Assembly (NCBI GenBank): GCA_963675295.2
Contig: CAXXKJ010000002.1
Location: forward strand, 2,304,001-2,368,000
Length of the DNA stretch: 64,000 nucleotides
Source of the DNA: a bacterium
GTDB taxonomy: Bacteria; Electryoneota; Electryoneia; Electryoneales; Electryoneaceae
Direction of reading: 5' to 3'
The notes under the pieces were generated by a model, which searched no databases, was not told where the DNA came from, and saw only the letters and a list, made by a program, of their open reading frames with translations. A program made the position numbers and the translations under genes. Below, one piece after another: positions 11,901 through 64,000 of this stretch; position 1 is the first letter of the stretch, and each line of letters opens with the position of its first letter.

Positions 11901-12717
11901 TACGGATGACTACCGTCTCAGTTCCGGTGTGGACTGGACGACCCGGTTGAGCACGAGCATCGATTACAACATCAAGTTCTCACAATCCTCCGGGAACAAG
12001 GTTTCAGGCCAGACGACGCGTTCAGCGTTCTATTTGTTCAACAAGGACGATGAGTCGTTGACGGCGCTGGACATTCCGAACTACACGGTGCGTTGGTCGG
12101 GACTCGAGCAGTTCGGACCGTTGAAGAACATCGCGCAGACGATTTCCTTCGATCACAGCTACCGTGGTGAAACCAGCGAAAGCTGGGAACGGGTGGTGCA
12201 GCCGGACAGCCTGGGCGGAATCCGGCGGCAGGTGCAGTCGCGTTCGTTCAGCCGGCAGTTCAGCCCGCTGGCAGGGTTCAATATCACATGGATGCACAGT
12301 ATCAGCACCACCGCACGCTACAACTGGTCGCAGCGTTACAACGTGACGGCCAGCAACAACACGAAGACGCGTAACACCGAACAGAGCATCACATTGTCGG
12401 TGAACTACACGCGCAAGACCGGGTTCCGGATTCCGATTCCGGTGTGGCCGTTCAAGAACAAGCGTTTCGACAACGAAACCACGTTCGCGTTGAGCTTTGA
12501 CAGGACCGCGAGCCGCAACGAAACGCAGCGTGAGGGGTCCGGGTTCGAGATGACGGACGAGCGGTTGAGCTGGTCGGTGGGGCCGAATGTGAACTATCGT
12601 TTCTCGCGGAATGTCAGCGGCAGTGTCCGGTACAAGTACGGTGTGACGGAAACGGTGACGAACACGACGAAGTTCCAGGAATTCGGTATCAACGTCCAGA
12701 TCAACATTCGTGGGTAG
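5953..12717 (+). CDS. sprA: T9SS outer-membrane translocon SprA/Sov
   Basis: 2254 aa; GKVGDKVSVEIDQDSER, FEFENNVKLEYTGYEDEIIQSIEAGNVSL, WNLEWKHVY, GVAYIDDFEAS, VWVDELRLS; beta-strand-rich C-terminus. Confidence 0.93.
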   Translation: MSLTRCRRGQRRVNSVVFSALALFLLSLLPLNASAFNRAGLSPSVPGWFDPDEDLRAPKPYQAFGVDSLAGFNVEGILFRVETELDSARGYYISTRELFGREYGRPIVESRETYREDRFKRDRVKYLKDDFLERIKRPSANAGEDAIEIQVPFKIQNKTFRRIFGGDRVGLRVSGKITVDGGLRRETSDQVVTTQTDQANYNFKIDQTQQFRIVGKVGDKVSVEIDQDSERVFEFENNVKLEYTGYEDEIIQSIEAGNVSLTLPGTQLATLTAKNEGLFGFKTVSKVGALSITTIASLQNGEKNKLSYTGGSESQTKRVNDVDYVTNQYFFLDPVYRETFPTFTLDYVRQAQQAEISNLEVYRSVVAGAGDVSTLLEGIAIYDESIANKVPDVSGLTVQELSDFVDSLSADTELQSADWVERGFFKKLEEGTDYEYHKDFGYIRLRYAAQGNEVIGVSYTVNGQHVGVNNVNFPGGNKTVLKLIKPTSPKPSNPTWNLEWKHVYWVGTTNLKEGDFDFRILRNNTEQSQTNAQNKSWLEVFGLDVFNSDGAKTPDGIIDAQWVRLGDGEIHFPDLRPFDPAGYVVGSDSVFIDLSEELRNPNIYDVLPNSGVTIEKKFVLESEYSNTSANINLGINVLEGSEEVFLNGALLKKDQDYIIDYLSGQITILNEAAFDPNANLEIKYESGEVFQLDQRTMLGIRLEYALWEDSFIGLTLLNFNEKPIEKRVKVGNEPLQNFIWDANTRLRFHPYFMTQMVNAIPLISTDEPSEVVFEGEIAQVFPNPNSLNNGSTGDNDGVAYIDDFEASQRATPLGVRRKNWYAASHPVRLPFWNQKMTANDNNDFRMRLYWWNPYKQIPITDIWPNREVNSNVPNNTDVLSMRFDPEVNNLRRADVDPEDTWNGVMRSLSAGFHNQSNTKFIEVWMQWNGQGGPNAAIYFDMGQISEDVIPNGQLDSEDEPLYSDSNIGNKILDDGEDIGIDGIDDDDPPWRNGSETSGEPWTVENENYDYDSPQYDWWDINGNGVHDAGDGSLSNPPEPFSSDDWSFSASSPNDVDQINGTENNQDDEARYPDTEDLDGDLNLNQANNFFRYQFRLNDPEHFTKYVRGGQSNPKKWYLVRIPIEDVFDEVNEPDLTQIEFFRVWATGLSSPASVQIAQIELVGNEWLEDPIVNPVTGDTTVYVTATTINTYDNSEDYNPPPGVAGEIDPITDIRSKEQSLVMSLRDIPTAVEGQLIKYLYNEQDLREYRLLKMFVNGGGRNQQALENKDLEFFLRFGSGLEGSNLGYYEYSLPLKPGWDENSIEINLDRLTSLKKKAEESGEDFAYETLANGHTMKVIGTPSIGSVNLYAVGVRNNGRPVSSDEGIEVWVDELRLSGVRKERGMAMRSSLDMSFADFFDLQTNIKQSDAEFHQVDQRSGSDQSSIDASVSGSLQLDKFLDPSLGVRLPLRGSVSSKLDIPKYTSGNGDVRTESLVDQGELNVWKRYGDMALSKEHYNDKYLRDESGGVVVDETTGIPLQDRSAWGVDTLFTTSQNYSWSLNYSKSGQSSHWLPKYTIDKLSSSYSRSEKYSSSLSYQYQKTFTNNGSVSYSLPLERQELNVFGWTERIPVLETLADSKLNYLPTRLNGGVDASETIKSQKYRNALERPSYTLGMTRDWGTSFSPFRPLSFDYDYSIQSQHVRQDSSRQQILYDDQPDSVRQRVFDPGTTDLTMVEELISQLQEVTFGQDGQDIANQAQTKLNNGEPPADILEFIYSEARIRLPGDLASYLKQPWDRIPSDDPRYSETFWSALNLPFADTQKTQNVRFNYSPSIVSWLTTSMDYSSRYTWSWSGFKYTGRSIQTSNNLGGSMSFRLRQILPAERGEGSVQDQQERDFARLLGREEETEGEEGGEEGDEEEQGPSDEERLRANQQAILRAINPVNLGLGFLRRLQDIRVNYNQSTSFNTPGVEDGTPSWEYRLGFTGDSGLNQVPNISSVTTANRTDDYRLSSGVDWTTRLSTSIDYNIKFSQSSGNKVSGQTTRSAFYLFNKDDESLTALDIPNYTVRWSGLEQFGPLKNIAQTISFDHSYRGETSESWERVVQPDSLGGIRRQVQSRSFSRQFSPLAGFNITWMHSISTTARYNWSQRYNVTASNNTKTRNTEQSITLSVNYTRKTGFRIPIPVWPFKNKRFDNETTFALSFDRTASRNETQREGSGFEMTDERLSWSVGPNVNYRFSRNVSGSVRYKYGVTETVTNTTKFQEFGINVQINIRG

Positions 12718-16026: not shown

Positions 16027-17949
16027 TTAACTCACGCGTAAACCCGGCGATACCTGGTCGTTCGGGGTTAATAGACGCAGGTTGTCGCCGTCACGGACGG
16101 CCAGCAGCATCCCCTGGCTCTTGACACCACGGATCTTTGCCGGCTGCAGGTTAGCAACGACGATGATGGTCTTGCCGACGATCTGCTCCGGGGTGTAATG
16201 CTGCTTGATGCCGGCGACGAGCTGTCGTTTCTCGGTACCGAGGTCGATCTGCAGTTGCATCAGCTTATCGGTGTCCTCGATCGGTTCGGCAGCAAGAACC
16301 ACGGCGGTGCGCAGATCCACCCGCTTGAACTCGTCGAAGCTGATCAAGCCGTCATCCGCTTTTGGCGCGGGTTTCGGCTGTTTTTTCTGCTTCGATTCCG
16401 ATTTTGGCTTCGGGGCTTCGTCCTGCGCTCCCGGCTTCTTGTGTCGCGGGAAGAGCGGGTCGCCGTATTTGGCGGTCCGTCCAGCCAGTTTTTCGCCCCA
16501 CTCAACATCATCCCAGTTCCGATGCGGATCGGCTTCGACGCCAAGGCGCTCGAACACTTCCGGGATCATCACCGGCATCACCGGCGCGAGCAGGATCGCG
16601 GCGATGCGCAGCCCTTCGGCGGCACGAGCGAGGTCGCGTCCGGCCTGTTCCTTGTCGGTCTTGATCGTGGTCCACGGCGCGGCTTCGGTGATGTCGCGGT
16701 TGATCGCACGGACGAATTGCAGCGTTTCCTCGATCGCGGCGTGGATCTGGATGTCTTCGACCAGCTGTTTGACCTTGTGCGTCGTCGCCTTGGACAATTC
16801 GACCAGCGGATCTTCCTCGTCCCACTGCACGTCCGGCACGACGCCGTCGAAGTGCTGGTCGAGCAATTTTGTGACACGGTTCAGCAGGTTGCCGAGATCA
16901 TTGGCGAGGTCGCTGTTGAGGCGCTTGACGACGTTTTCCTCGCTGAAGTTGGCGTCCTGCCCGACGACCATGTCGCGCATCAGGAAGTAGCGGAACGAAT
17001 CCATGCCGTAGATGTCGGCGAGGTCGAGCGGCTTGACCACGTTCCCGGATGATTTGGACATCTTGGCGGCGTCCTTCGCCAGCCACCAGCCGTGCGCGAG
17101 GATGTGTTGCGGCGGTTCGAGTCCAGCGGCTTTCAGCATCGTCGGCCAATAGACGGAATGCGTGGTCAGGATGTCCTTGCCGATCAGGTGATACTGGGCT
17201 GGCCACGCGGGGCTTTTGCCGTCGGGCGGCGCAAGGGTCGCGGAGTAATAGTTCAGCAAAGCGTCGAACCAGACGTAGGTGACGTAGTCACTGTCCCACG
17301 GGATCTCGATTCCCCAACTCAAACGGCTTTTCGGACGGCTGATGCAGAGGTCGCCGAGCGGTTCGCGGAGGAAACCGAGGACTTCGTTGCGACGGAAGCC
17401 CGGAACGATCGAGTCCGGGTTCTTCTCATAATGCTCGATCAGCCAGTCCTGGTACTTGGACATCTTGAAGAAGTAGTTGGTCTCCTTGATCAGCTCGACC
17501 GGACGACCGCTGATGGGATCTTTTCCATCCACGAGATCCTTCTCGGTGAAGAACTGTTCTTCGAAGACGCTGTACCAGCCTTCGTAGTCTTTCTTGTAGA
17601 TGTCGCCGGCGTCGTAAATCTGCTGCAGGATCTGCTGCACGATTTTCGTGTGGCGCGGTTCGGTGGTGCGGATGAAATCGTCATATTCGATGCCGAGCTT
17701 GGCCCACACCTTGACGAACTTCTGCGATGTGATGTCGCAGTGTTCCTGCGGGGTGCGTCCCAGCTTCTCAGCCGCGGTGGCGACTTTCTGGCCGTGTTCA
17801 TCGGTGCCGGTCAACAGGTGGACATCATCACCGAAGAGCCGGTGATAGCGGGCGAGGGTGTCCGCGAGCACTGTTGTGTAGGCGTGCCCAATGTGCGGTT
17901 CGTCGTTGACGTAGTACAGCGGCGTGGTAATGTAAAAGGGCTTGCTCAT
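16027..17949 (-). CDS. metG: Methionine-tRNA ligase with C-terminal tRNA-binding domain
   Basis: FYITTPLYYVNDEPHIGH, KMSKS, YVWFDALLNY; C-terminal ISFDEFKRVDLR...VANLQPAKIRG. Confidence 0.99.
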   Translation of the reverse strand: MSKPFYITTPLYYVNDEPHIGHAYTTVLADTLARYHRLFGDDVHLLTGTDEHGQKVATAAEKLGRTPQEHCDITSQKFVKVWAKLGIEYDDFIRTTEPRHTKIVQQILQQIYDAGDIYKKDYEGWYSVFEEQFFTEKDLVDGKDPISGRPVELIKETNYFFKMSKYQDWLIEHYEKNPDSIVPGFRRNEVLGFLREPLGDLCISRPKSRLSWGIEIPWDSDYVTYVWFDALLNYYSATLAPPDGKSPAWPAQYHLIGKDILTTHSVYWPTMLKAAGLEPPQHILAHGWWLAKDAAKMSKSSGNVVKPLDLADIYGMDSFRYFLMRDMVVGQDANFSEENVVKRLNSDLANDLGNLLNRVTKLLDQHFDGVVPDVQWDEEDPLVELSKATTHKVKQLVEDIQIHAAIEETLQFVRAINRDITEAAPWTTIKTDKEQAGRDLARAAEGLRIAAILLAPVMPVMIPEVFERLGVEADPHRNWDDVEWGEKLAGRTAKYGDPLFPRHKKPGAQDEAPKPKSESKQKKQPKPAPKADDGLISFDEFKRVDLRTAVVLAAEPIEDTDKLMQLQIDLGTEKRQLVAGIKQHYTPEQIVGKTIIVVANLQPAKIRGVKSQGMLLAVRDGDNLRLLTPNDQVSPGLRVS

Positions 17950-17958
17950 GGTTCGATC

Positions 17959-19560
17959 TTAGCGCTTTCGATTACGTCCTCGAGGTCGTGGCGGCCGGCC
18001 TTGCGGCTTGCCATCCGAAGGCTGGGAAGATGGGCCCTGCTTGCCGCCGTCGCCAGACGGCTGGCTCTGGCGAGACTCTTTGCCGCCCTGAGATCCGGAA
18101 GCGTTCGGGTTGCCGCCGGAACCCTTGTCATCGCCGCCTCCGCGATGGTTGCGTCCGCGTCCACCGCGCCGCCGCGAGGACTTGCCGTCACCCTTGTTCT
18201 GCTGGGAATCGTCGCCATCCTTGCGTTTGTCGCGTGGCTGGGCTTCGTGCTTCGGGGATCCGTCCGCGTTCTTGCCTCCCCGGCGTCCACGGGATTTAGA
18301 CCGTGACCGGCTCGGCTTATCGCTTTGCTTCTCGTCGCCGGACTTCGCGCCGTCGGCGGCCTGAGCCTTGTCGTTTGGCTTGTTGCCACGTCCCCGTCGT
18401 CGAGATCCACCACGGCGGGATTTGCGTTGCGGCTTTTTCTTGTCGTCGTCCGCGGACTCGCCGGCGGAGGACGGAGTTGCCGGAACAACCTGCACGATCT
18501 CCGGACGATCCTTGGTATTGGCGTGCTGCTGCTTCTGGCTTTTGTCCTTGCCGCAGGAGGGGCAGGCGCCGCCGTCTCCGCCGCCCTTCTTCGGCTTGGA
18601 GCGTACGGACACGCGCGGGTCGCCGTTCGGACGGTGATCGCCACGGGCGACCAGTTCGCCTTCCTGTTCTTCCTTGCGTTGCTCCTCGATCGAGGGATCT
18701 TTGCGGAAGGTCAGCAGTTTGGGCTTCTCAGTACTATCCGGGTCCCAGTCGGTGAATTCCTTGAGGTGTTCCATTCCATAGGAATACTTGGCGCCGTCTT
18801 CCCACTCGATGCCGATGTGTTCCCAGTTGTAACTGAACTTGTTGACCTTGCCGCGTCCGCGCGGGCCCTTGACCAGGGTGCCGATTTTCGGGAACAGCTT
18901 GTTCAGATCGCGGTACTGGTCGACTTCATAACGCAGGCAGCAGCGCAGTTTGCCGCAGGGGCCGGTGTTCTTCTGCGGATTCAGGATCATGTGCTGATCC
19001 TTCATCATCGAAGTGGTCACCGGTTTGAACTCACGAATCCATGACGAACAGCACAGTTCACGTCCACAGATACCAATACCGCCGAGCCGCTTGGACTCGT
19101 CCCGGGCGCCGATCTGACGCAGGTCGATGCGGGTGTGGAACTGTTGCGCGAGGGATTTGACCAGTTCGCGGAAATCGACGCGTCCGTCCGCCGTGAAATA
19201 AAACGTCAGCTTGCGGCGATCGAGCTGGCATTCGACTTCGACCAACTTCATCTCGAGGCCGATCCGCTTGACTTCGTCCCGGAAGAATTTGCGGGCTTCG
19301 ACTTCGTGCTCGGCGTTTTCCTGGAGTTTTTCCAGGTCGTCGGGGGTGGCGAGACGGAGGACGGACTCTGGATCGCGTCCCTCTTCGATGTTGTTGCGGT
19401 TGATCTCTTCGAAGCGATCATCGACGAGGTTGACGATCCCGAGGTCAATGCCCCGATCCGCCTGGACAATGACGGCGTCCTCGGGGACCAACGGGTACTG
19501 CTCGGGGTTGGCGTAGGTAACACGCCGGCGTCCCCGGAACTCTATTTCTACCAATCGCAT
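17959..19560 (-). CDS. ricT: PSP1/YaaT (RicT) family Fe-S protein with long Arg/Gly/Asp-rich tail
   Basis: FYFTADGRVDFRELVK, RQIGARDE, GIGICGRELCCS, GPCGKLRCCLRYE; holB-PSP1-metG order. Confidence 0.9.
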   Translation of the reverse strand: MRLVEIEFRGRRRVTYANPEQYPLVPEDAVIVQADRGIDLGIVNLVDDRFEEINRNNIEEGRDPESVLRLATPDDLEKLQENAEHEVEARKFFRDEVKRIGLEMKLVEVECQLDRRKLTFYFTADGRVDFRELVKSLAQQFHTRIDLRQIGARDESKRLGGIGICGRELCCSSWIREFKPVTTSMMKDQHMILNPQKNTGPCGKLRCCLRYEVDQYRDLNKLFPKIGTLVKGPRGRGKVNKFSYNWEHIGIEWEDGAKYSYGMEHLKEFTDWDPDSTEKPKLLTFRKDPSIEEQRKEEQEGELVARGDHRPNGDPRVSVRSKPKKGGGDGGACPSCGKDKSQKQQHANTKDRPEIVQVVPATPSSAGESADDDKKKPQRKSRRGGSRRRGRGNKPNDKAQAADGAKSGDEKQSDKPSRSRSKSRGRRGGKNADGSPKHEAQPRDKRKDGDDSQQNKGDGKSSRRRGGRGRNHRGGGDDKGSGGNPNASGSQGGKESRQSQPSGDGGKQGPSSQPSDGKPQGRPPRPRGRNRKR

Positions 19561-39830: not shown

Positions 39831-39854
39831 CTCGATTTGCTAGCCGAGGCGGGA

Positions 39855-40868
39855 ATGACCATCTCCAAGTTTCGTTTTTTCACAGCCATAATGCTCGTCG
39901 CGTTATGGTTTTTCTTTGCAGCCTGCAGCGAAGACTCCGATGATCCAGTCAGCCCGGGACCCGAACCGCAGGACACTCTTGACGTCGATTTCCTGATGGG
40001 ATTCTGGAACTGCGCGGAAGGCAATGAGGATTCATACCCGATTACCACGCTCTCGTTCGGCGAGGAAATGAATGGGATGATCGGCACGATGCAGGCACTG
40101 GATTACATGGTCTGGGAGGCGACCGACAGCACGTTGATGATCAATACGATCAACGGAATTCGCGACTATAATTACGAATATGCCAATGATTCGCTGTCGC
40201 TGTGGGTTGGACTTGGCGGCAAGCTGAACTTCGGCAAGGTGACCGATGCGGACACGGTGTACATCGAGCAGAATCCGTACCGCGCAGCCGTACTATTGCC
40301 GGAACTGATGGAATTGCACCTTGGGTTGTACGACGCGACCGGTTTGCAGCTGGTCTCGCTGTTCACCGGACTGGTGCAATCCGGGCAGCAGTTGATTTAT
40401 TACGATTACCCGGAAACGGTGCTGAATCAGGTGGTCGCGTTCGACGCGATCCGTAATGGCGGCACCCATTCGCGGCAGTACAAGGTGGTCGCACACCGTC
40501 CCGCTGTGCCGGAAGAAGCGAAGGACATAGTGGCGGATTTCTGGGACGCACAGCTCTACCTCGACAAGGAATTCGCGCTTGCGGGTAAAGATACTTTCGG
40601 CGATGCGTGGGAAGGTACCGAAGAAGACTGGTTCGCATTGACGATCCAGGAGAAGCTGCCGTACCTGCCGGGTAATATCCGTCGCAACCTGCCGGCGGAA
40701 GGCACCGACTCGTACTACTGGTACATCGCGGACTACACGTACCAGTTCGGTTTTGGCTGGACCGATGGGGTCGATGATGTCGTGAACACCGTCGAATGGG
40801 ACGGGACCAGCGAAAAGCTGACCGAATACCGTGTGCTGCTGGGATTGGAAGAAGAGGAGATGGAATAA
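39855..40868 (+). CDS. Hypothetical lipoprotein (paralog A)
   Basis: Lipobox FFAA-C followed by acidic SEDSDD; aligns by eye with the next gene. Confidence 0.75.
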   Translation: MTISKFRFFTAIMLVALWFFFAACSEDSDDPVSPGPEPQDTLDVDFLMGFWNCAEGNEDSYPITTLSFGEEMNGMIGTMQALDYMVWEATDSTLMINTINGIRDYNYEYANDSLSLWVGLGGKLNFGKVTDADTVYIEQNPYRAAVLLPELMELHLGLYDATGLQLVSLFTGLVQSGQQLIYYDYPETVLNQVVAFDAIRNGGTHSRQYKVVAHRPAVPEEAKDIVADFWDAQLYLDKEFALAGKDTFGDAWEGTEEDWFALTIQEKLPYLPGNIRRNLPAEGTDSYYWYIADYTYQFGFGWTDGVDDVVNTVEWDGTSEKLTEYRVLLGLEEEEME

Positions 40869-40896
40869 ATAGGGTCAGTCGCCTGGGGGGAGGGTG

Positions 40897-41895
40897 ATGC
40901 AACCGAGGTTATGGCGTTTTAGCGCCGGTTTATCCGTGATATTCCTCGCTGCATTTGCTTTTATTGGATGCGAGGATGTGGGCAAAGATAATCCGGTTGA
41001 AACCGGCCCGGATTACAGCTTCATCCACGGATTTTGGGAGGTCTCTGACGATAACCTGGAAAATGCTCCGTTCCAAGTATTCTCATTTGGGCCTGAAGGA
41101 ACGGGGATGTTGGGTTCAAGTGCAGAGATGTCCCAATTCACTTTTTCGATGACGGACAGTTCGATCAAGTTGGACGGTGATAGCGCCAGCCGGACTTTAA
41201 ACTACCAGATGGTATCCGATACGTTCAGGCTGATAGATGGCCTGGGCGATGTTATTTCGTACGTCAGGGTGGTGGATACGGATACGGTTTACTTAGAAGA
41301 CAATCCGGAGTTGGTGAATCTGACGATGCCTGAATTCTATTTCCTGCATGTTGCGGTGCACGGAGGTGGCGGCGAGATCATTAAGACACTCGCAAATGGT
41401 ACTTACTATGCCGGTGTCCACCGGTTCCTCCTGGATTACCCGGATACAACTGAGGGGAGTGATTTTTCGATTGATGCTCATGTGCCTGGAAAATGGTTTG
41501 CCCGGACCTGCCGAACCGTGCAACGCCGTGGCAACGTTTCGCAGGAAACCATGGAATTTGCGGACATGTATTTCGATAAGGAAGCTTATCTGCTGGGTGA
41601 ATACTACTGCTCTTTCCACCCGAGAGGCACAAATGATTTTCATGGAACATTTGAAGAGTGGAAAGAACTGAAGTTTCTTGAAAAACAGGAATATCTGGGG
41701 GGATATTTTCGACACAACATCAACGTAACCGGAGATGCCTTCTATTGGCGGATTGGCGTGTATCCTGAACAGTTCGGGTTCGGCTGGGTTGATGCGTTAG
41801 ATGATGACATAGAAACGATTGAATGGGACGGAACCAGCGAAAAGTTGACCGAATACCGTGTGCTGCTGGGATTGGAAGAAGCGGAAGAGGATTAG
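40897..41895 (+). CDS. Hypothetical lipoprotein (paralog B)
   Basis: Lipobox AFIG-C; shares DTVYxExNP, QFGFGWxD and EWDGTSEKLTEYRVLLGLEE with paralog A; lower GC. Confidence 0.75.
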   Translation: MQPRLWRFSAGLSVIFLAAFAFIGCEDVGKDNPVETGPDYSFIHGFWEVSDDNLENAPFQVFSFGPEGTGMLGSSAEMSQFTFSMTDSSIKLDGDSASRTLNYQMVSDTFRLIDGLGDVISYVRVVDTDTVYLEDNPELVNLTMPEFYFLHVAVHGGGGEIIKTLANGTYYAGVHRFLLDYPDTTEGSDFSIDAHVPGKWFARTCRTVQRRGNVSQETMEFADMYFDKEAYLLGEYYCSFHPRGTNDFHGTFEEWKELKFLEKQEYLGGYFRHNINVTGDAFYWRIGVYPEQFGFGWVDALDDDIETIEWDGTSEKLTEYRVLLGLEEAEED

Positions 41896-55334: not shown

Positions 55335-57824
55335 GTGTCCCTGCGAACGGGTGACGAAAGTTGCCGTCGTGGCAGGGGAGCGCGCGGTCGGAGCAGCAGG
55401 AGGCAGAGTACGCTCGTGGTAGCGTTCCGGTTTACCCCGACAGGGGCCAGGAAGAGAATAACGGCAGCGATCGCGGTATTGAGCGCGTGTTTGCTGGCCG
55501 TTGCGGTAGTTAATGCGGCCCGTCCCGGCGGCACTCCGCGCAAGATCCAGCAGGATGACTACTGGCACTATACCAGTGTCGGCAACCTCGGCATGACGGT
55601 GACGAATTTCGGCATTCTCGGCCAGGGGTATAACAATGCCGACCAGCCGTCCTGCGAGTACAAGTTCCGCAGCACGCTGGATTCACGGAAGGATGAGGTC
55701 GAACACTTCTCGTACGCCGGTATCTGGATCGGTGGTGTGCGTGACAATCAGGACCGTGTTTCGACCGCGATCACCGATGGTGTGTTTGGCTACGAGGATG
55801 GCGGCTGGGAGTTTACCTCGTCGTACACGGATCGCATCAAGGATACCCCGATCTGGCGTCACCTCGCGAAGATTGACCGCCGCTTCGACCTTTCCCGGAT
55901 TGATCAGGGTGAGGTCGAATTTGCGAATACGCTGACGGCTGAAGTGGACAATGGCTGGATCGAATTCGGTTCGACCACATGGGACACGATTGTCACCTCG
56001 AGCTCATTGCGTGAGGTCAGCGAAGACAGCCCGTACGGCCGTCTGTTTGACCCGAACGCAATCAGCCACCAGGATCTCGTCTGCGCCTATACCGATACGA
56101 ACACCATCGTGCCGGGCACCGGCGTCACAATTGAAAACCACATCCCGCTCGGCGTGCATGTCTACCAGGAAGTGTATGCGTGGAACTACGCGTACGCCGA
56201 CGCCTTCGCGATTCTCAACTACACGATTACCAACATCCCCAAGGGCTGGTTCGTCGCAGACCGTGACACGACGATGGAGTATTCGGCGAATGTCATCCGC
56301 GAGTTCTCGGCGGGCGACACGGTGTTCACCGGTTCGGTGATTGAAACGCCGTACTTCGGCATCTGGGTCGATGCGTCCATCGGCAACATGAACTACACCT
56401 CGGCGTATGGTGAAAATACCCCCGGCGGCAACTGGTACTGGTACGACAACCTCAACGATTACGATCCGGAACGCCGGCTTGGATTGCAGTACGACTATGA
56501 CGGCGACGCGGGCTGGGCGCAGAGCTATCTCGGCGTGAAAATGCTCGGCGCTGAAATTGTGCAGGGCGATTCGTTAACCACGGATTGGGACGCGTATTAC
56601 AACCAGTGGACGTGGGGCGGGTCGGCATTCGGCAACACGTGGCCGATGCCGTTCACCGAGTCGGAACGGTTGCAGAAGATGGGTACGCATGGGTCGTACT
56701 CAACGATCCCGAGCGACGAAGACAGCCAGCAGTCGTGGATGATGCTATTGACCAGCGGTCCGTATCCGGATCTCGCGCCTGGTGACCGGTTCAACGTGGC
56801 GATCGCATTGATGGGCGCGCGTTGGAACGGTGGTGGTCCGGACAACGAAGATCGTCGTGAGTACCTCTACACGAATGCGGAATGGGCGCAGATCGCGTAC
56901 AACGGGGAAGACCGGAACGGGAACGGTGTGCTGGATCCTGGCGAGGACAAGGACCTCGACGGCAAGATCACGCGCTTCGTGCTGCCGGAACCGCCTCCGG
57001 CACCAGACCTGGCGGTTGTCGCCGGCGATCATGAAGTGGAACTCTACTGGACCGACACCCCGGAATACACCATCGATCCGATCAGCAACGAACCGGATTT
57101 TGAAGGGTACCGGGTGTACAGCTCGCCGAAGACCGAGGTGCCGGAAGGCGAAATCGAGAACGAGTGGACGTTGCTGGCCGAGTTCGATGTGGACACGACC
57201 GAAACGGACACGAATCTCGTCGGCTTCAACCTTGGCCTTGACGCCATTCGTCTTGAACAGGATACGCTGATCAACGGCATCAGCTACCAGTACAAGTGGG
57301 TGAATTCGAACGTGCGCAACGGCTGGCCGCGTGAGCTGTACTACGCGGTGACTGCGTACGACCGTGGCGACGAAGCGGCGGGTCTATTGTCGTTGGAGTC
57401 GAACCCGAACAACAATGTGGTGTATGCGTTCCCGGGCACGAAACCGGCGGCTTCCGGCGATAACCGGGTTGGTGTGTATCCAAATCCCTATCGCGGACGC
57501 GCGGCCTGGGACGGGTTGACCGAACGTGACCGGCTGATCTGGTTCCGCAACCTGCCCGTAGAATGCAAGGTGACGATCTTCACGCTGGCGGGTGAACGAG
57601 TGGATTCGTTTCGACACAACGCGCGAACCTACGCGGGTAACGACGTGGATCGGATCAATGCCGGCGCGACCGCCGGAGAGATTCGGTCCTTCAGCGGTGG
57701 TGAGCATGCGTGGGATCTGCTGACCGAGGACGATCAGGAAATCGCGACCGGGCTGTACATCTACACGGTCGAGGATCTCAATTCCGGTGATGTGAAGACC
57801 GGCAAATTCCTGGTGATCAAGTGA
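55335..57824 (+). CDS. Secreted T9SS-cargo-like protein with Ca-binding loop and FN3-like domain
   Basis: Signal peptide; VGNLGMTVTNFG...EHFSYAGIWIGG; GEDRNGNGVLDPGED; PPPAPDLAVVAGDHEVELYW; CTD-like VYPNPY...IFTLAGE...GLYIY...GKFLVIK. Start uncertain (55335 or GTG 55416). Confidence 0.8.
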   Translation: MSLRTGDESCRRGRGARGRSSRRQSTLVVAFRFTPTGARKRITAAIAVLSACLLAVAVVNAARPGGTPRKIQQDDYWHYTSVGNLGMTVTNFGILGQGYNNADQPSCEYKFRSTLDSRKDEVEHFSYAGIWIGGVRDNQDRVSTAITDGVFGYEDGGWEFTSSYTDRIKDTPIWRHLAKIDRRFDLSRIDQGEVEFANTLTAEVDNGWIEFGSTTWDTIVTSSSLREVSEDSPYGRLFDPNAISHQDLVCAYTDTNTIVPGTGVTIENHIPLGVHVYQEVYAWNYAYADAFAILNYTITNIPKGWFVADRDTTMEYSANVIREFSAGDTVFTGSVIETPYFGIWVDASIGNMNYTSAYGENTPGGNWYWYDNLNDYDPERRLGLQYDYDGDAGWAQSYLGVKMLGAEIVQGDSLTTDWDAYYNQWTWGGSAFGNTWPMPFTESERLQKMGTHGSYSTIPSDEDSQQSWMMLLTSGPYPDLAPGDRFNVAIALMGARWNGGGPDNEDRREYLYTNAEWAQIAYNGEDRNGNGVLDPGEDKDLDGKITRFVLPEPPPAPDLAVVAGDHEVELYWTDTPEYTIDPISNEPDFEGYRVYSSPKTEVPEGEIENEWTLLAEFDVDTTETDTNLVGFNLGLDAIRLEQDTLINGISYQYKWVNSNVRNGWPRELYYAVTAYDRGDEAAGLLSLESNPNNNVVYAFPGTKPAASGDNRVGVYPNPYRGRAAWDGLTERDRLIWFRNLPVECKVTIFTLAGERVDSFRHNARTYAGNDVDRINAGATAGEIRSFSGGEHAWDLLTEDDQEIATGLYIYTVEDLNSGDVKTGKFLVIK

Positions 57825-59023
57825 TGAACGTGCGCACCTGTATCGTCGTGTTACTGGCGCTGCTGATCGCGGTGCCGCTGGTTGCCGGGACCATCTCGGT
57901 TGATACCGGTTTCTACACCGCTCCGGCGGACGAGACGTTGCCGTTGGTGGACGGCGATCACGCGACGAATGTGATCCTGTTGATCGGTGACGGGATGGGG
58001 TACCGGCAGGTTGAGGCGGCGCAATACACCGCTGTAGGTCCTGAAGGCCGGCTGCACATGCAGACAATGCCGGTGACCGGGATGATGAGCACGTGGTCGG
58101 CGGACCGGTTGATCACCGACTCGGCGGCGTCCGGGACCGCGATTGCAACCGGCTACAAGACGGACAATCGCCGGATCGGCATGCTTCCAGATGGCCAGAA
58201 GCCGGTCAGCATCCTTGAGGCGGCGGAAGCGATGGGGTTATCGACGGGGCTAGTCGCCACGTCCACGATCACACACGCGACTCCGGCGGCATTCGCCGCG
58301 CATCAGCCGTCGAGATACGACCAGTCGGCGATTGCGCTGGACATGGCGAATTCAGGTGTGGATGTTGTGCTCGGATCCGGGACCAAGTACTGGTTGCCTG
58401 CGCCGGATGGCGAACGTGAGGACGGCCTGGACCTGCTGAAGCAGATGCAGCACGACGGGTATACCATCGCGCGTACCGGCGATGAGATGCTGGCGTTGGA
58501 TCGGATGCCGGCGATTGGGCTGTACGGTCCGAACGAACTGTACGAAACGCCGGAAGAACCGTCCATCGCGGAACTGACGCGGCAGGCGATCGAGTTGTTG
58601 GCTCAGGGCGAGGATGGATTCTTCCTGATGGTGGAAGGCAGCCAGATCGACTGGGAAGCGCATGCGAACGAAGAGGATGAACTGGTACGTCGCACCCTGT
58701 TGTTTGACCTTGCGGTGGCGGAGGCGATCGAGTTCGCCAAACGGGATGGTAACACGTTGGTCATTGTGACCGCCGATCATGAGACAGGCGGAATGACGTT
58801 GACCAAGGGTAACCGTGACGGCTCAGAGGTTGTCGCGCAGTTCAGCTCGACCGGCCACACGGCCGGTGTGGTGCCGGTGTTCGCGTACGGGCCGGGCGCG
58901 TTGGCGTTCACCGGCTTGTACGAGAATTCGGACCTGGCAGTGAAGATGTCGCGGGCGCTGCGGATCAAGGATTTCCCGCGGTTGCATCAACAGAGTGATT
59001 TCAACCAGACGCTGGCCGACTAA
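57821..59023 (+). CDS. phoA: Alkaline phosphatase, PhoA family, exported
   Basis: NVILLIGDGMG, TDSAASGTA (catalytic Ser), THATPA, VEGSQIDWEAH, TADHETGG; start overlaps the upstream stop. Confidence 0.95.
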   Translation: MMNVRTCIVVLLALLIAVPLVAGTISVDTGFYTAPADETLPLVDGDHATNVILLIGDGMGYRQVEAAQYTAVGPEGRLHMQTMPVTGMMSTWSADRLITDSAASGTAIATGYKTDNRRIGMLPDGQKPVSILEAAEAMGLSTGLVATSTITHATPAAFAAHQPSRYDQSAIALDMANSGVDVVLGSGTKYWLPAPDGEREDGLDLLKQMQHDGYTIARTGDEMLALDRMPAIGLYGPNELYETPEEPSIAELTRQAIELLAQGEDGFFLMVEGSQIDWEAHANEEDELVRRTLLFDLAVAEAIEFAKRDGNTLVIVTADHETGGMTLTKGNRDGSEVVAQFSSTGHTAGVVPVFAYGPGALAFTGLYENSDLAVKMSRALRIKDFPRLHQQSDFNQTLAD

Positions 59024-59126
59024 GCGGAACGTCTGGTTTTTGGTCCATGTGTTGTAGTTTCGCAAGCACTGAATGGTTGAGATAGAAAAGAAACGCAATT
59101 CGTGCGTTTGCAAAGAGGAGAAGGGT

Positions 59127-61931
59127 ATGATGCGCAGGCTACAGGTTTTACTTCTTGTACTGCTTGTCGCGGTGGTTGGCAGCGTGCAGGCGACAACCAT
59201 TTACGACATCCAGTACGTTCCGAACCCGGGCTCGGATGATGCCAGCCCGTTGCTCGGCCAGACGGTGACGGTGACCGGTCTGGTGACCTTCGAGCCGATG
59301 TCCAGTGGTGGCAACAGTTTCTTCATCGCGGACGATGCCGGCCCGTGGAACGGTGTCAATGTGTACACGGACGATGTGGACTACAATCTCGGTTTTGGCT
59401 GGGAAGTGGAAGTCACGGGTGTGGTCGATGAGTATAATGGCCTGACCGAAATCCTCGCGACCGAGGTGAACGTTCTGGACAACCGTTACGACATGGCCGC
59501 GTTCTGGGAAGACTTCTACGCCAACCCGGCCAGCTACCCGGAATTGCAGTACAGCGTGGTCGATCCCGCGAACCTGATCAACGCCGCGGATGCCGAACAG
59601 TATGAAGGCTGCCTGGTCAAGATTGAAAACGTGAGCGTTGAAACGCTGCCGGGTGATTTTGACGAGTGGAGCGTCAACGACGGCAACGACAACATCGTCG
59701 TGATTGACGACCCGGCCAGCGATGTCTGGGGCTACAAGCACACCGTCGTCGAAGGCAATAGCTACGAACGGATTCAGGGTATCCTGAACTACTCGCATGG
59801 TGAGTACAAGCTGCGTCCGGAAATCGCCTGGGACCTGAAGGTGGACATTGATCAGGCCAACGGTTACTACACCCAGGTCGCGTATTTCCAGCAGGTCCGT
59901 CCGATGGACATGACCGTGCGCGAATTTGGTGGCGAATTCCGTATGTGGGACAACTCGTATGCGGCCAATTCCCGCTATGGTCTGGACGAGAATGAAGGTA
60001 ACCGTGGTGAGGATATCATCATTCACGCCGTGGTTTCCTATCCGACCGACCTCGGCTATGCGGGTTCCACCGGCGCGAAGTTCATCATGACCGACTGGCT
60101 GGTTGGTGACACGCAGGAACCGTGGATGTCGGTACTCAGCTACACCCCGGACCTGAACCAGTTCGGCAACCTGTATGAAGGCGACGAAGTCGTGTTCTAC
60201 GGCCAGGTTGGTGAGTATGAGACTGCACCGTCGAAGATGACGGAAGTCTGGCTGTCTGATCCGTACGAATTCCTCAGCTTCGACAACCCGGTTCCGACTC
60301 CGGCGCTGGTTGACATTGAAGAGCTGCGTAACTCGATGACGGCGGAACAGTGGGGCAATGTGTTCGTCGAGCTGCAGGATGTGATCGATGTTGACAACGA
60401 TATTCCCAGCAACTATGAGTTGTTTGCTGTCGACGATGATCTCGATGACGATTGGCTTCCGGTCAATGTGGATGACGACTCGGCCGAGATGACCGGCTAC
60501 GAAGAGCCGCCAGTCGGTACGAACATCGAATCCATCACCGGTTGGATCTACAACCACTACGGCACGTACGACGAGACGACAACGAACAACTGGGCGTACA
60601 AAATCTGCCCGTCGTATCCGGAAGACATTCTCGTCGGCGAAGGCCCGCCGAACATCCTTAGCGTGACGCGTGACTACGGTGTCGTGCCCCCGGGCGCGCC
60701 GGTTACGATCAACGCGACGATCGCCGACAACTCATCTGTCGAACGCGCCACGGTGTATTACCGTTGGGACAACGGTACGTGGGAAAGTGACGACATGGAC
60801 TTCACCGGCGACATCTACTACGAATTCGAGATGGAAGTTGCGCCGGAAGGTACGTGGGTCGAGTACTACGTCGAAGCGGAAGACGACCTTGGCACCACCA
60901 GCACTTACCCGGGCGACCTCGACCTGCAGTACCTCGGCTACTGGGTGGATGATGACATCTCGATCCAGGACATCCAGTGGACGCCGTGGGCCTCTGGTTC
61001 CAGTCCGTATGAAGACGTTGTGATCGATGAAGTCACCGGTGTGCTTACCACAACGGCGACCAACGCTTTGACGTACGACGAACCGGAAGGCACGTATCCG
61101 TACTTCATGCAGGTTGGTGATAGTCCGGCCTGGAGTGGTATCATCGTCGTGCTGAACGAAGAGTACCAGCAGGGTGATGAGATCACTATTACCGGCGCTA
61201 CGGTCAACGAAATCGGTGTTGACAGCGAAGGCATTGGATGGACATTCAAGTGGGGTAGCTCAACCCGCCTGATCAACCCTGCGCTGGTTACGGTGAACAG
61301 TTCCGGTAACGACTTTGAAGTATACGAGACCGATGTTGCGACGGTGAACGCCGACCTGGAAGCCTGGGAAAGCGTGATGGTTCAGTTCAGTGACATCACG
61401 GTCGGTGGTCGTAACTCCTATGACGTTGACTTCCGTGACGCTTCCGGTGAAGTGTTCCTGATCGACGATGATATGGTGTTGCCGGATGAGCCAGACGATC
61501 CGGGCGTTCCCGCAGCACAGGACTTGTTCGATTCGCTGCAGCCGGCGATGACGAGCACGTCGTTCACCGGTCCGGTGACCTTCAGCTTCGGCACGTGGAA
61601 GATCGAAGTCCGTGACGAGTTCGACTTCGGTACGCTCGGTGTTGGCGAAGGCGTTGTTGAGCAGCCGCTCAGCTTCAACCTCGCGCCGGTGTATCCGAAC
61701 CCGTTCAACCCGAGCACGACGATCAACTTCAGCATCCCGTGGACGGGCAATGTGAAGGTGATTGTGTACAACGCTCTGGGCCAGAAGGTGACGACACTGC
61801 TAAACGAGCAGATGACTCCGGGCCAGCACACGTTGGTGTGGAATGCCCAGAATGTGTCGTCCGGCACGTACTTCCTGCGCCTGCTCTCGAACCGTGAGCA
61901 GAAGGTGCAGAAGATGGTGTTGATGAAGTAA
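59127..61931 (+). CDS. T9SS-secreted protein with three YhcR/ExeM-like OB-fold modules and an Ig-like domain
   Basis: Signal peptide; TIYDIQ...SPLLGQTVTVTGLVT and ISIQDIQ...SPY...TGVLT; ExYEG/ExWGN/ExWES motifs; CTD YPNPFNPST...SGTYFLRL...KMVLMK; SD AGAGGAG. Confidence 0.82.
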   Translation: MMRRLQVLLLVLLVAVVGSVQATTIYDIQYVPNPGSDDASPLLGQTVTVTGLVTFEPMSSGGNSFFIADDAGPWNGVNVYTDDVDYNLGFGWEVEVTGVVDEYNGLTEILATEVNVLDNRYDMAAFWEDFYANPASYPELQYSVVDPANLINAADAEQYEGCLVKIENVSVETLPGDFDEWSVNDGNDNIVVIDDPASDVWGYKHTVVEGNSYERIQGILNYSHGEYKLRPEIAWDLKVDIDQANGYYTQVAYFQQVRPMDMTVREFGGEFRMWDNSYAANSRYGLDENEGNRGEDIIIHAVVSYPTDLGYAGSTGAKFIMTDWLVGDTQEPWMSVLSYTPDLNQFGNLYEGDEVVFYGQVGEYETAPSKMTEVWLSDPYEFLSFDNPVPTPALVDIEELRNSMTAEQWGNVFVELQDVIDVDNDIPSNYELFAVDDDLDDDWLPVNVDDDSAEMTGYEEPPVGTNIESITGWIYNHYGTYDETTTNNWAYKICPSYPEDILVGEGPPNILSVTRDYGVVPPGAPVTINATIADNSSVERATVYYRWDNGTWESDDMDFTGDIYYEFEMEVAPEGTWVEYYVEAEDDLGTTSTYPGDLDLQYLGYWVDDDISIQDIQWTPWASGSSPYEDVVIDEVTGVLTTTATNALTYDEPEGTYPYFMQVGDSPAWSGIIVVLNEEYQQGDEITITGATVNEIGVDSEGIGWTFKWGSSTRLINPALVTVNSSGNDFEVYETDVATVNADLEAWESVMVQFSDITVGGRNSYDVDFRDASGEVFLIDDDMVLPDEPDDPGVPAAQDLFDSLQPAMTSTSFTGPVTFSFGTWKIEVRDEFDFGTLGVGEGVVEQPLSFNLAPVYPNPFNPSTTINFSIPWTGNVKVIVYNALGQKVTTLLNEQMTPGQHTLVWNAQNVSSGTYFLRLLSNREQKVQKMVLMK

Positions 61932-61983
61932 AACGATTTTCGGTGACCGGCTGGATTGATGGTCACCGTTGGATGTAGAGGTC

Positions 61984-62017
61984 CGTGGACATCATTCCGC
62001 TGCGAATGATGTCCACG
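61984..62017 (+). promoter_or_regulatory. Perfect 14-bp intra-operon hairpin without U-tract
   Basis: cgtggacatcattc-cgctgc-gaatgatgtccacg; a second stem cggtgacc...ggtcaccg lies at about 61941-61968. Confidence 0.6.
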
Positions 62018-62108
62018 TGGCCTGTTTGAACTACCGGTCATGGGACCGGACCTGGTCATGTCGCCGTGGCGGGAAGATTCCCGCGCGGACTACAGAGACT
62101 GCACGTAC

Positions 62109-63692
62109 ATGAGATCGAGTCGCAGGGTAGAGCGAGTCCTGATGCTGGCGGCGTTTGCGGCGTTCGTGCTGTTTGGCGGACTGCTGCTCGTCGGCTGCGA
62201 GGACAAGGATCCGTTGGACGCGGACGGCATCGCCGGACCGTCCAAGTCGCCGGTTGAGAATGAGCCGCCGGAAACGCACTTGTCGTTGAACTTCCCACCC
62301 GGTGAACTGCCGGACACCAGCCGCAGCTCGAAAACGCTGAACTGGTGGGGTGAGGATATCGACGGCCGAGTGGTTGGCTATCAGTACCGCTGGGGTCAGG
62401 TGGTTTTTGAGGATACGACCACCATCGCGGACTCCACGCAACTTGAACCGATTGACACGCTGTGGTACAACGGCGATTTCGCGTTTGTCGGTGGTGATGA
62501 TGAAGTGTGGGTCAGCACCTCGTACGAAGAAGTGAAATTCGTGCTTCCGATTCGTACGGTGTCCGCTACGTTCACGATGCAGGTGCGGGCGTTGGACAAC
62601 GACGGAGCGATTGACCCGACACCGGCGGAAATCGCGTTTCCGATCATCAACAGCAAGCCGGAAATCGAGTTTCGTGAAGGATCGAACCCGGGCACGTCCG
62701 ATCCGGACACGACCGTCATTGATTCGGTTTTCACGTTCCCAGTGCGGACGTTTGTCTGGGACGCCAGCGATCCGGACGGCAACGAAAGTATCGACAAGAT
62801 CCTGTACGCGCTCGATCCCGTTCCAGGCGACACGAACTGGCAGGAACTGGCCGGGAATGAATCCAGCGTGACGCTCACCGAGCTGACTCCTGGCGCACAC
62901 TCGATTGCGGTCAAGGTGATTGACGTCGCGGGATTTGAATCGCCGTCCATCATGTATCCTGATCCGGCGAAGAAGGATGTCGATCCGGACTACTGGATCG
63001 TGAAAGCGCCCGCTCCAGGCGGGTTCCTGATCGTGGACGACTACGCGTTGCAGTCGCAGAACGGGACCTTGAACTATTACAAGGCGATCCTCGACAGCAT
63101 CTACAACGACGGCACCGATGGGGAAGACGATGTCTACAGTGTCTGGGAGCTGGAAGAGCTGCCGTACGCGACGACGGATGTCACCCAGTCGTTGCTGATG
63201 TTTGACAAGGTGCTGTGGTATTCCTTCCGTGGGACACCCTTGTTGACAGATGCTTTTGCCTCGATGTACTCGTTCATCAACACCGAGGGGAACCGGTTGT
63301 TGCTGACGACCTCGGTGGTGGATTCCGGCGAAGCGGGTGTGGATGAAGGAATGTTGCTGGACATCGCGGACGGTGTTGAGTTCATTTCCGGCCGCTTTGG
63401 CACATTGTCGGATGATCCGGTTTACATGGACCCGGTCGATGTCCCGAGTTTGCCGCAGCTTTACATCGGTGGACTGATCAACTCCAACACCTGGGGATTG
63501 ATTCCTGCCGCAGGTTCGGAGATCCTCTATCGTCTCGATGAGTCAACGCACGAACCTCCACAGTATGAGGGGACGCCGGTTGTTGGTCTGCGGCGTCAGG
63601 ACAAGTCCTACACCCTGATTACGATTCCATTGGATCTAACCTCCGACCGGCCCAAGGTCGGCGAGTTGATCCGAAACACCTTTGCCGAGTAG
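62109..63692 (+). CDS. Lipoprotein with two Ig/FN3-like domains and a C-terminal alpha/beta domain
   Basis: Lipobox LLVG-C followed by EDKD; NEPPETHL...WWGEDIDG...QVRALDNDGAIDPTPA echoed by WDASDPDG...VKVIDVAG; LIVDDY domain. Confidence 0.8.
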   Translation: MRSSRRVERVLMLAAFAAFVLFGGLLLVGCEDKDPLDADGIAGPSKSPVENEPPETHLSLNFPPGELPDTSRSSKTLNWWGEDIDGRVVGYQYRWGQVVFEDTTTIADSTQLEPIDTLWYNGDFAFVGGDDEVWVSTSYEEVKFVLPIRTVSATFTMQVRALDNDGAIDPTPAEIAFPIINSKPEIEFREGSNPGTSDPDTTVIDSVFTFPVRTFVWDASDPDGNESIDKILYALDPVPGDTNWQELAGNESSVTLTELTPGAHSIAVKVIDVAGFESPSIMYPDPAKKDVDPDYWIVKAPAPGGFLIVDDYALQSQNGTLNYYKAILDSIYNDGTDGEDDVYSVWELEELPYATTDVTQSLLMFDKVLWYSFRGTPLLTDAFASMYSFINTEGNRLLLTTSVVDSGEAGVDEGMLLDIADGVEFISGRFGTLSDDPVYMDPVDVPSLPQLYIGGLINSNTWGLIPAAGSEILYRLDESTHEPPQYEGTPVVGLRRQDKSYTLITIPLDLTSDRPKVGELIRNTFAE

Positions 63693-63696
63693 ACGG

Positions 63697-64000
63697 ATGA
63701 AACGAGCTTTGCAACCTGTGGAACCAACCTCTCGTCCAGTGATGATGCGTCTGCTGTCCGGGTTGCTGTTTCTGCTGCTGGCCGGAACATTCGCCACGGC
63801 AGCGGCGCAGACCGGCAGCATTTTCGGCACGATCACCGATGCGGAAACGGGCGAACCGATCCCGACGGTGAATGTCGTGCTGCAGGGTACGCACAAGGGC
63901 GGCACGACGGACATTGACGGGAATTACATCATCCCGCTGGTCGCACCTGGCGGGTACGACCTGCGCGCATCCTACGTCGGCTACAAGGTGTTCCTGAAGA
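63697..64000 (+). CDS. TonB-dependent receptor, N-terminal carboxypeptidase-regulatory-like domain (partial)
   Basis: Manual translation: signal peptide then AQTGSIFGTITDAETGEPIPTVNVVLQGTHKGGTTDIDGNYII...GYDLRASYVGY; open to the window end. Confidence 0.78.
   Translation, partial: MKRALQPVEPTSRPVMMRLLSGLLFLLLAGTFATAAAQTGSIFGTITDAETGEPIPTVNVVLQGTHKGGTTDIDGNYIIPLVAPGGYDLRASYVGYKVFLK

Follow-up and report, generated by a model that had tools for sequence, protein, structure and literature searches.

A putative TonB-dependent import operon with type IX secretion cargo and no SusD in a bacterium of the FCB group

The seven genes of the operon

We analysed a stretch of 64,000 nucleotides (the window; positions 2304001-2368000 of contig C2 of the source genome, G000), in which a run of genes for exported proteins leads up to the gene of a TonB-dependent receptor. 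Five open reading frames (ORFs) lie head to tail in one direction between position 55335 and the end of the window, as a preliminary description of this DNA had reported. The next 35 kb of the genome beyond the edge was examined for the remainder, and the complete operon was found to consist of seven same-strand genes with overlaps or short gaps: g1, g2 (PhoA), g3, g4, g5 (the receptor), g6 and g7. Positions beyond the window are given for L001, the operon's own locus; other L-numbers designate loci compared with it.

The first gene, g1 (55335-57824, + strand), most likely starts at a GTG at 55416 (55416..57824), which has a GGAGG 12 nucleotides (nt) upstream and yields the 802-amino-acid (aa) form found in the protein collection. 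This secreted protein is made of a signal peptide, a beta-supersandwich (residues ~46-525), a fibronectin type III (FN3) domain (~530-660) and an atypical type IX secretion system (T9SS) C-terminal domain (CTD; ~680-802). No family in Pfam or NCBIfam matched it. Its homologues number at least 368, every one of them named 'hypothetical', and occur in Calditrichota, KSB1, Marinimicrobia, Zixibacteria and Fidelibacterota. A structural model was obtained from 32 sequences (mean predicted local distance difference test score, pLDDT, 71.7). With this model, Foldseek against the PDB returned chiefly FN3 and immunoglobulin (Ig)-type multidomain proteins, and an Atlas search with the N-domain gave no usable named match; the informative result came from VIA-align. 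Residues 46-525 resemble the N-domains of glycoside hydrolase (GH) family GH116, GH94, GH15 and GH65 enzymes (Z 13-16), the best being the GH116 N-domain 7w2t (Z 15.8, root-mean-square deviation (rmsd) 4.1, 264 aligned residues). By the same method the g1 tail is nearest in fold to PorZ (5m11; Z 10.8, rmsd 2.8, 88 aligned, 26% identity) and also near PorU (6za2; Z 9.5, rmsd 2.9, 86 aligned). Neither PF18962 nor TIGR04183 matched this tail at E <= 0.1, and the earlier classification of g1 as a T9SS-CTD protein therefore stands by fold and not by sequence profile. The g1 N-domain also occurs in a relative as a further, truncated copy (L029 = G008:C1:39811-59810, ORF 16195-18078 on the - strand, 628 aa; 54% identity over g1 residues 24-531), distant from the cassette and with no cassette genes alongside.

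The second gene, g2 (57821-59023, + strand), encodes a 400-aa alkaline phosphatase of the PhoA type. It matches PF00245 (E 1.4e-80, 271.8 bits vs a cut-off of 24.4) and misses the E. coli-type equivalog NF007810 (180 vs 540 bits). It contains the stretch DSAASGT, which we take to be the catalytic serine motif of PhoA-type phosphatases. Its start lies in a GTGATG that overlaps the TGA stop of g1, so that both the identity and the overlap previously claimed for this gene were confirmed, and its translation is probably coupled to that of g1. Because g2 carries a signal of the SPI type with neither a secretion tail nor a lipobox, PhoA is probably located in the periplasm.

The third gene, g3 (59073-61931, + strand; 952 aa, 933 aa on record), encodes a secreted protein with oligonucleotide/oligosaccharide-binding (OB) folds. 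It ends in a type A T9SS tail (PF18962, 42.5 bits vs a cut-off of 27, E 7.9e-11; TIGR04183, 41.5 vs 23 bits), and its model (pLDDT 84.1) has OB folds at residues 21-137, 293-384 and 729-840 and an Ig/FN3-like domain at residues 504-615, in agreement with the three OB modules and T9SS CTD first attributed to it. The OB folds match the AspRS anticodon domain, RPA, PriB, MCM, SSB and Stn1 (Z 9.4-10.5), and the central domain resembles CBM56 (5t7a, Z 10.7). Foldseek returned the p204 HINab-dsDNA complex (5z7d_B, E 6.9e-8), with a poor global superposition. Many g3 relatives of the Marinimicrobia type (e.g. P0156, P0186, P0201, P0213) are longer and fuse a lamin-tail domain (LTD; PF00932) and cytochrome-type haem domains (PF07635, PF00034, PF13442) to the OB modules.

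The lipoprotein gene g4 (62040 or 62109 to 63692, + strand; ~527-550 aa) has the lipobox LLLVGC, of which Cys53 is unchanged in 13/13 orthologues and is followed by an acidic stretch (C-EDKDPLDAD). It is present in a single copy in G000 and matches no Pfam family; its nearest Atlas clusters are unnamed Fidelibacterota proteins, and the nearest named one (DUF4960 at 0.90) is weak and serves as a lead only. One g4 orthologue (G024:C71:254791-256476) contains a single in-frame TGA.

The receptor gene g5 has candidate starts at 63682, 63697 and 63742, which place it 5 to 50 nt after the g4 stop, and runs on the same strand to L001:11492 (window-equivalent 66492). The window had been thought to hold the start of a receptor, and the genome indeed carries a complete one of 936 aa, with CarboxypepD_reg (E 1e-17), Plug (E 2.4e-10) and TonB_dep_Rec barrel (E 4.5e-23) domains and the sequence EEIVIIG, presumably a TonB-box-like motif. 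On TIGR04056, the model of SusC/RagA-type receptors, g5 scored 61.1 bits vs a cut-off of 368.25, in a match confined to N-terminal positions 4-207.

A porV gene had been guessed to follow, and g6 (L001:11601-12695, beyond the window; 364 aa), 108 nt downstream of g5, encodes such a barrel. It scored 188.9 bits on the PorV/PorQ family NF033709 (cut-off 90, E 1.7e-55), its profile matches F. johnsoniae PorV (6h3i_F, E 7.5e-16), and it falls below the equivalogs for PorV (62.4 vs 250 bits) and PorQ (62.9 vs 220 bits). By these scores g6 is classed as a member of the PorV/PorQ family and as neither canonical PorV nor canonical PorQ. The last gene, g7 (L001:12695-14284, beyond the window), whose ATG shares one base with the g6 stop, encodes a 529-aa lipoprotein with an NHL repeat (E 4.1e-7), the lipobox LMLSGC and acidic residues after the Cys. 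A role for g7 as a BtuG-like propeller in vitamin B12 uptake was considered and dropped, as neither a cobalamin riboswitch nor supporting homology was found. A terminator-like hairpin (L001:14354-14377; 10-bp, GC-rich, with a T-rich tail) lies 70 nt downstream of g7. The presence of the secretion gene sprA in the same window, also asserted in the preliminary description, was verified by a PF14349 match at 5953-12717 (E 7.4e-51).

A conserved cassette and its paralogous trios

The distribution of the cassette was surveyed with the g4 profile in one genome per species, which gave 63 loci, several of them on the contigs of relatives that were also compared individually. Three or more core genes were present in 59 loci, and 57 of them kept the order g1-g3-g4-g5-g6-g7, a recurrence which indicates that the clustering is more than chance; of the two exceptions, L077 contains an additional g3-like gene and L095, from Eisenbacteria, has a permuted order. 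Carriers belong to Calditrichota, KSB1, Marinimicrobia, Fidelibacterota, Ignavibacteria and others, and the related loci that were compared individually keep the same order, with receptor identities of 49-97%. PhoA apart, the gene set is thus colinear across several phyla of the Fibrobacterota-Chlorobiota-Bacteroidota (FCB) group, a conservation that the preliminary description had suggested checking. Within its own phylum, strong g4 matches (E < 1e-100) were found in 20/79 genomes and weak N-terminal matches only in 9 more. The cassette is therefore a patchy, accessory trait, and the idea of a core envelope machine was rejected on the same count. In one Neomarinimicrobiota contig (L083) each cassette gene is in many pieces, which looks like a frameshift-rich assembly and not like decay.

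PhoA behaves differently from the other six genes. Of 48 loci in which both g1 and g3 occur, 7 have PhoA between them, and all seven are close kin. Among the relatives compared individually it is present in L015-L021 (seven loci) and missing from L022-L027 (six loci, three from the same family). On this distribution PhoA is a lineage-specific, recent insertion and not part of the conserved system, which weakens the weight that the preliminary description placed on it.

Six further clusters in G000 combine a CarboxypepD_reg receptor, a large protein whose FN3 domain and tail are shared with g1, and a PorV-like barrel. The neighbours of these trios vary (GH38, PNGase F, GH20 and an S8 peptidase; GH53; a GH13 amylase; beta-helix proteins; an M6-like protein), with glycosidase genes adjoining three of the six trios and peptidase genes (S8, M6-like) present in two loci. 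When G000 was searched with a hidden Markov model (HMM) of the g1 tail, seven ORFs were found at E <= 1e-35, one at 1e-10, and then PorU at 4e-6; ordinary type A tails scored weaker than 1e-5. All seven ORFs with a g1-type tail are clustered with a receptor and a PorV-like barrel, and the canonical PorU-PorV pair of the genome lies elsewhere (L036). The eighth ORF (G000:C2:3025888-3028422, - strand, E 1.1e-10), outside the window and with no PorV-like barrel found nearby, might be a PorZ-like protein.

According to the available part of a review of the T9SS (PMC10202324), the tails of PorU and PorZ remain uncleaved, bound to PorV and PorQ, and cognate PorV-like barrels are proposed to shield such tails. 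We co-folded g6 (residues 24-364) with the C-terminal part of g1 (residues 525-802) in three runs plus controls. The complex scores were 0.90, 0.91 and 0.91, compared with 0.00 for the best control; the mark used for this score is passed by 116/157 solved complexes and by 2/215 mismatched pairs. The partners had pLDDT values of 81 or more, the runs had 97% or more of their contacts in common, and the contacts on g1 fell on residues 674-802. Two points limit this result: the score may mirror likeness to solved PorV complexes, and it does not show a preference of g1 for g6 over canonical PorV.

The arrangement recalls PorU-PorV and PorZ-PorQ of Porphyromonas gingivalis, since g1 is proposed to keep its CTD and to stay bound to a PorV/PorQ-family barrel, and since its tail is nearest by fold to PorU and PorZ and the tail HMM matches PorU weakly. 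It departs from them in that the barrel is a private paralogue below the equivalog cut-offs, encoded beside a TonB receptor, and in that the canonical PorU-PorV pair is encoded at a separate site.

A search for SusD (PF07980) found no match in G000 (92.8% complete), including among the operon proteins, and did find the B. thetaiotaomicron control. This agrees with the suggestion made at the outset that the locus serves TonB-dependent uptake with a link to the T9SS and no SusD, in an FCB lineage outside Bacteroidia. As in the SusC/SusD (RagA/RagB) systems, a CarboxypepD_reg receptor is encoded beside a presumed surface partner and accessory surface proteins, and some of the paralogous trios lie near glycosidase genes; unlike in these systems, SusD is missing from locus and genome alike, g5 is far below the TIGR04056 cut-off, and the presumed partner, which is secreted and has a PorV-like barrel to itself, is no lipoprotein. 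No description of the trio of receptor, CTD protein and PorV-like barrel, or of the cassette, was found in the literature, and the supplements of the two closest papers, on the ddb locus of Bacteroides thetaiotaomicron and on Riemerella, may list more distant homologues. The sources found instead, in the parts available, were these two papers (PMC12478041; PMC8459023), the T9SS review (PMC10202324) and papers on the Bacteroidota BAM.

The nature of the substrate

The preliminary description proposed that the locus serves to take up nucleic acid, on the strength of the OB modules and of PhoA. The OB modules, which are modelled with folds like those of nucleic-acid-binding OB domains, proved to be related to DUF5689 (PF18942), the DdbD family. 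In hhalign, the g3 family profile aligned over 408 columns (98.3% probability, E 1.4e-14) with a DUF5689+LTD protein whose gene lies immediately downstream of the L079 cassette. Among 28 aligned g3 relatives (E <= 0.001), PF18942 was found in nine and PF01336 in eleven, and a hand count of precomputed matches gave PF18942 in 36 of 120 g3 homologues among the matches listed. Module 1 of g3 aligns with the N-terminal, non-catalytic OB-type region of ExeM/NucH (NF033681, positions 15-211) at 32 bits vs a cut-off of 300. In this region g3 is like the ExeM/NucH and YhcR nucleases, and it is unlike them in having no endonuclease/exonuclease/phosphatase catalytic domain.

The ddb locus of B. thetaiotaomicron, in which DUF5689 is represented by DdbD, is required for DNA to be depleted; DdbD has been modelled with the DdbC transporter as its partner and compared to p202 (PMC12478041). 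The R. anatipestifer protein RA0C_RS04920, which natural transformation cannot do without, contains a DUF5689 domain as well (PMC8459023). As far as these partial sources go, the operon resembles ddb and the Riemerella pair in placing a CarboxypepD_reg TonB-type barrel beside a surface protein of DUF5689-related OB folds, and resembles ddb in its layout, similar to a polysaccharide utilization locus, with a periplasmic hydrolase carrying an SPI signal (PhoA here, DdbB in ddb). The likeness seen between g5 and DdbC or RA0C_RS04915 is one of domain make-up (CarboxypepD_reg, Plug, barrel). The differences are that nucleases are present in the ddb locus and absent from the operon, that the OB protein is here a three-module T9SS cargo whereas DdbD is an SPII lipoprotein, that g3 itself has no PF18942 match, and that g1, g4, g6 and g7 are conserved here without a named Ddb counterpart in the text available.

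The neighbourhood of the cassette was surveyed over the nearest 90 of 148 same-strand candidate ORFs, with the fragmented L083 left out. A 5'-nucleotidase gene lies upstream of the cassette in L073, L075 and L095, which belong to three phyla; a GDPD gene was found in L074, and L096 has a gene whose PLD-like product carries a T9SS tail. LTD or DUF5689 proteins are encoded near the cassette in L069 and L079 (DUF5689+LTD in L079), and extra NHL genes are present in seven loci. Association with phosphatases, on which the original argument leaned, was thus found in the form of phosphoesterase genes that recur beside the cassette in other phyla. Glycosidase or peptidase genes, which had been named as pointers to another substrate, were not found among the 90 ORFs.

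A number of observations weigh against nucleic acid as the cargo or against the tie between PhoA and the system. No nuclease family was matched by any of the seven operon proteins, so that the sequence past the window edge, in which the rest of the receptor, a PorV-family barrel and nucleases were to be looked for, supplied the first two and no nuclease in the operon. G000 has no Endonuclease_NS (PF01223), and NF033681 found in it only weak partial fragments and no full ExeM/NucH. g3 itself had no PF18942 match at E <= 0.1, nor did a PF18942 search of G000 at E <= 0.01 find any. Furthermore, g3 is extremely acidic (pI 4.05, net charge -125), with 6-9 K+R vs 41-50 D+E in each OB module; with the exception of L099, every locus has an acidic or near-neutral orthologue, and no other cassette protein is usually as acidic as g3. 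With such acidity, direct binding of a polyanion would require bridging cations. The supersandwich of the large g1 domain is the fold of glycoside-hydrolase N-domains, and CBM_56 (PF22184) was found in 6/28 g3 relatives, both of which point to glycans. Most of the 90 neighbours are unrelated housekeeping genes, and PhoA is carried by only 7/48 loci. Setting the DUF5689-related OB modules against the lack of a nuclease, the charge of g3 and the carbohydrate-enzyme-type fold of g1, we regard extracellular nucleic acid or organophosphate as a plausible substrate, a little short of an even call.

The same machine may instead import a glycan, a glycoconjugate or another phosphate-ester polymer (teichoic-acid-like or phospholipid-derived), from which PhoA and the other phosphoesterases would trim the phosphate. 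The g1 supersandwich, the CBM56-like central domain of g3 with its PF22184-bearing relatives, the glycosidase genes beside three paralogous trios and the strong acidity of g3 are all consistent with such a cargo, and the GDPD and PLD-like neighbours suit lipid or teichoic substrates too. The relationship of the OB modules with DUF5689/DdbD and with the ExeM/NucH N-terminal region, the 5'-nucleotidase beside the cassette in three phyla and the absence of glycosidases and peptidases from the 90 neighbours (0/90) argue the other way, and we consider this alternative unlikely, while ranking it ahead of those that follow.

If nucleic acid is the cargo, the cassette could provide the outer-membrane step of natural transformation, bringing in long DNA for recombination as proposed for RA0C_RS04915 and RA0C_RS04920 of R. 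anatipestifer, a CarboxypepD_reg barrel and a DUF5689 protein that are both essential for transformation in the part of the report available (PMC8459023). The lack of a nuclease in the operon would suit this role, and G000 encodes ComEC (PF03772, E 1.3e-43). ComEC is, however, also encoded in 10/14 control genomes and is hence little informative; the probably periplasmic PhoA of this operon and the 5'-nucleotidases that other lineages carry suit the breakdown of DNA over its preservation; and no competence genes were found among the 90 neighbours, two SSB genes in KSB1 loci being the sole hint. A function in transformation is therefore improbable.

Around the operon, a MacB/HlyD/OEP efflux set lies upstream on the opposite strand. 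Past the hairpin, genes for a DUF819 protein, a methyltransferase and a DUF1015 protein follow (L001:14571-19108, window-equivalent 69571-74108), and their location beyond the terminator-like structure indicates that they probably form a separate unit. DUF819 and DUF1015 genes also trail the cassette in close kin (L037-L040), and the methyltransferase gene stands between them in the G000 locus. Scanned with Rfam at E <= 0.1, the 20-kb locus contained no RNA family and hence no riboswitch clue to the substrate, and a sigma-70 promoter scan gave fewer sites than in shuffled sequences. Elsewhere in the window, downstream of secA, two neighbouring ORFs of 343 and 333 aa (39837-40868 and 40894-41895, + strand) had no Pfam match at E <= 1e-4.

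A model for the import machine

In the explanation that we favour, to which we give about even confidence as a whole, the operon encodes a TonB-dependent import machine of the outer membrane whose surface parts are supplied by the T9SS in place of a SusD lipoprotein, with nucleic acid or a phosphate-ester polymer as the most likely cargo. Judging from their C-terminal domains, g1 and g3 would be exported across the outer membrane through SprA. The atypical tail of g1 is predicted to be retained and docked on the private barrel g6, beside g5, which fits the strict pairing of such genes in G000. g3 would catch the substrate at the surface through its three DUF5689-related OB modules, and the lipoproteins g4 and g7 would be further parts of the machine. 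Given its domains, g5 would draw fragments into the periplasm by means of TonB. The cargo would be extracellular nucleic acid, or else a phosphate-ester polymer related to it, comparable with that of DdbCD of Bacteroides. In this Calditrichota subclade, a probably periplasmic PhoA, putatively coupled to g1 in translation, was inserted after it, which fits the release of phosphate from the imported material.

Taken apart from its cargo, this architecture is likely to be correct. A device that does not import at all, either a surface structure or a T9SS-linked apparatus for export or attachment (an Oar-like TonB-dependent exporter, or an anchoring platform for g1 and g3), could be imagined from the very strong conservation of gene order, from the requirement for the TonB-dependent transporter Oar in Myxococcus protein secretion (available text of PMC6434023) and from the action of PorV-family barrels as shuttles and anchors (PMC10202324, in the part available), but it is the least probable alternative of all, as g5 carries the Plug and TonB-box-like motif of an importer, the same trio adjoins genes for degradative enzymes at several other loci of G000, and a cassette present in 20/79 genomes of its phylum is no core part of the envelope.

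On the import model, we tentatively propose that many FCB phyla lacking SusD hold a T9SS-secreted receptor partner, by a special tail that it retains, on a private PorV-like barrel, that the cassette is the DNA-scavenging version of this design and a relative of DdbCD, and that in one Calditrichota subclade the insertion of a coupled PhoA turned it towards the scavenging of phosphorus; for this combined proposal our confidence stays below the midpoint, and below that given to nucleic acid or organophosphate as the substrate. If true, it would explain how polymers are captured at the cell surface in abundant phyla of sediment and ocean that lack SusD (Calditrichota, KSB1, Marinimicrobia, Fidelibacterota, Ignavibacteria), and it would give the T9SS a second general role, that of supplying and anchoring the partners of transporters. 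The cassette would then represent a widespread route for the turnover of extracellular DNA and organic phosphorus, and the PhoA insertion would be a natural hint at the chemistry of its cargo.

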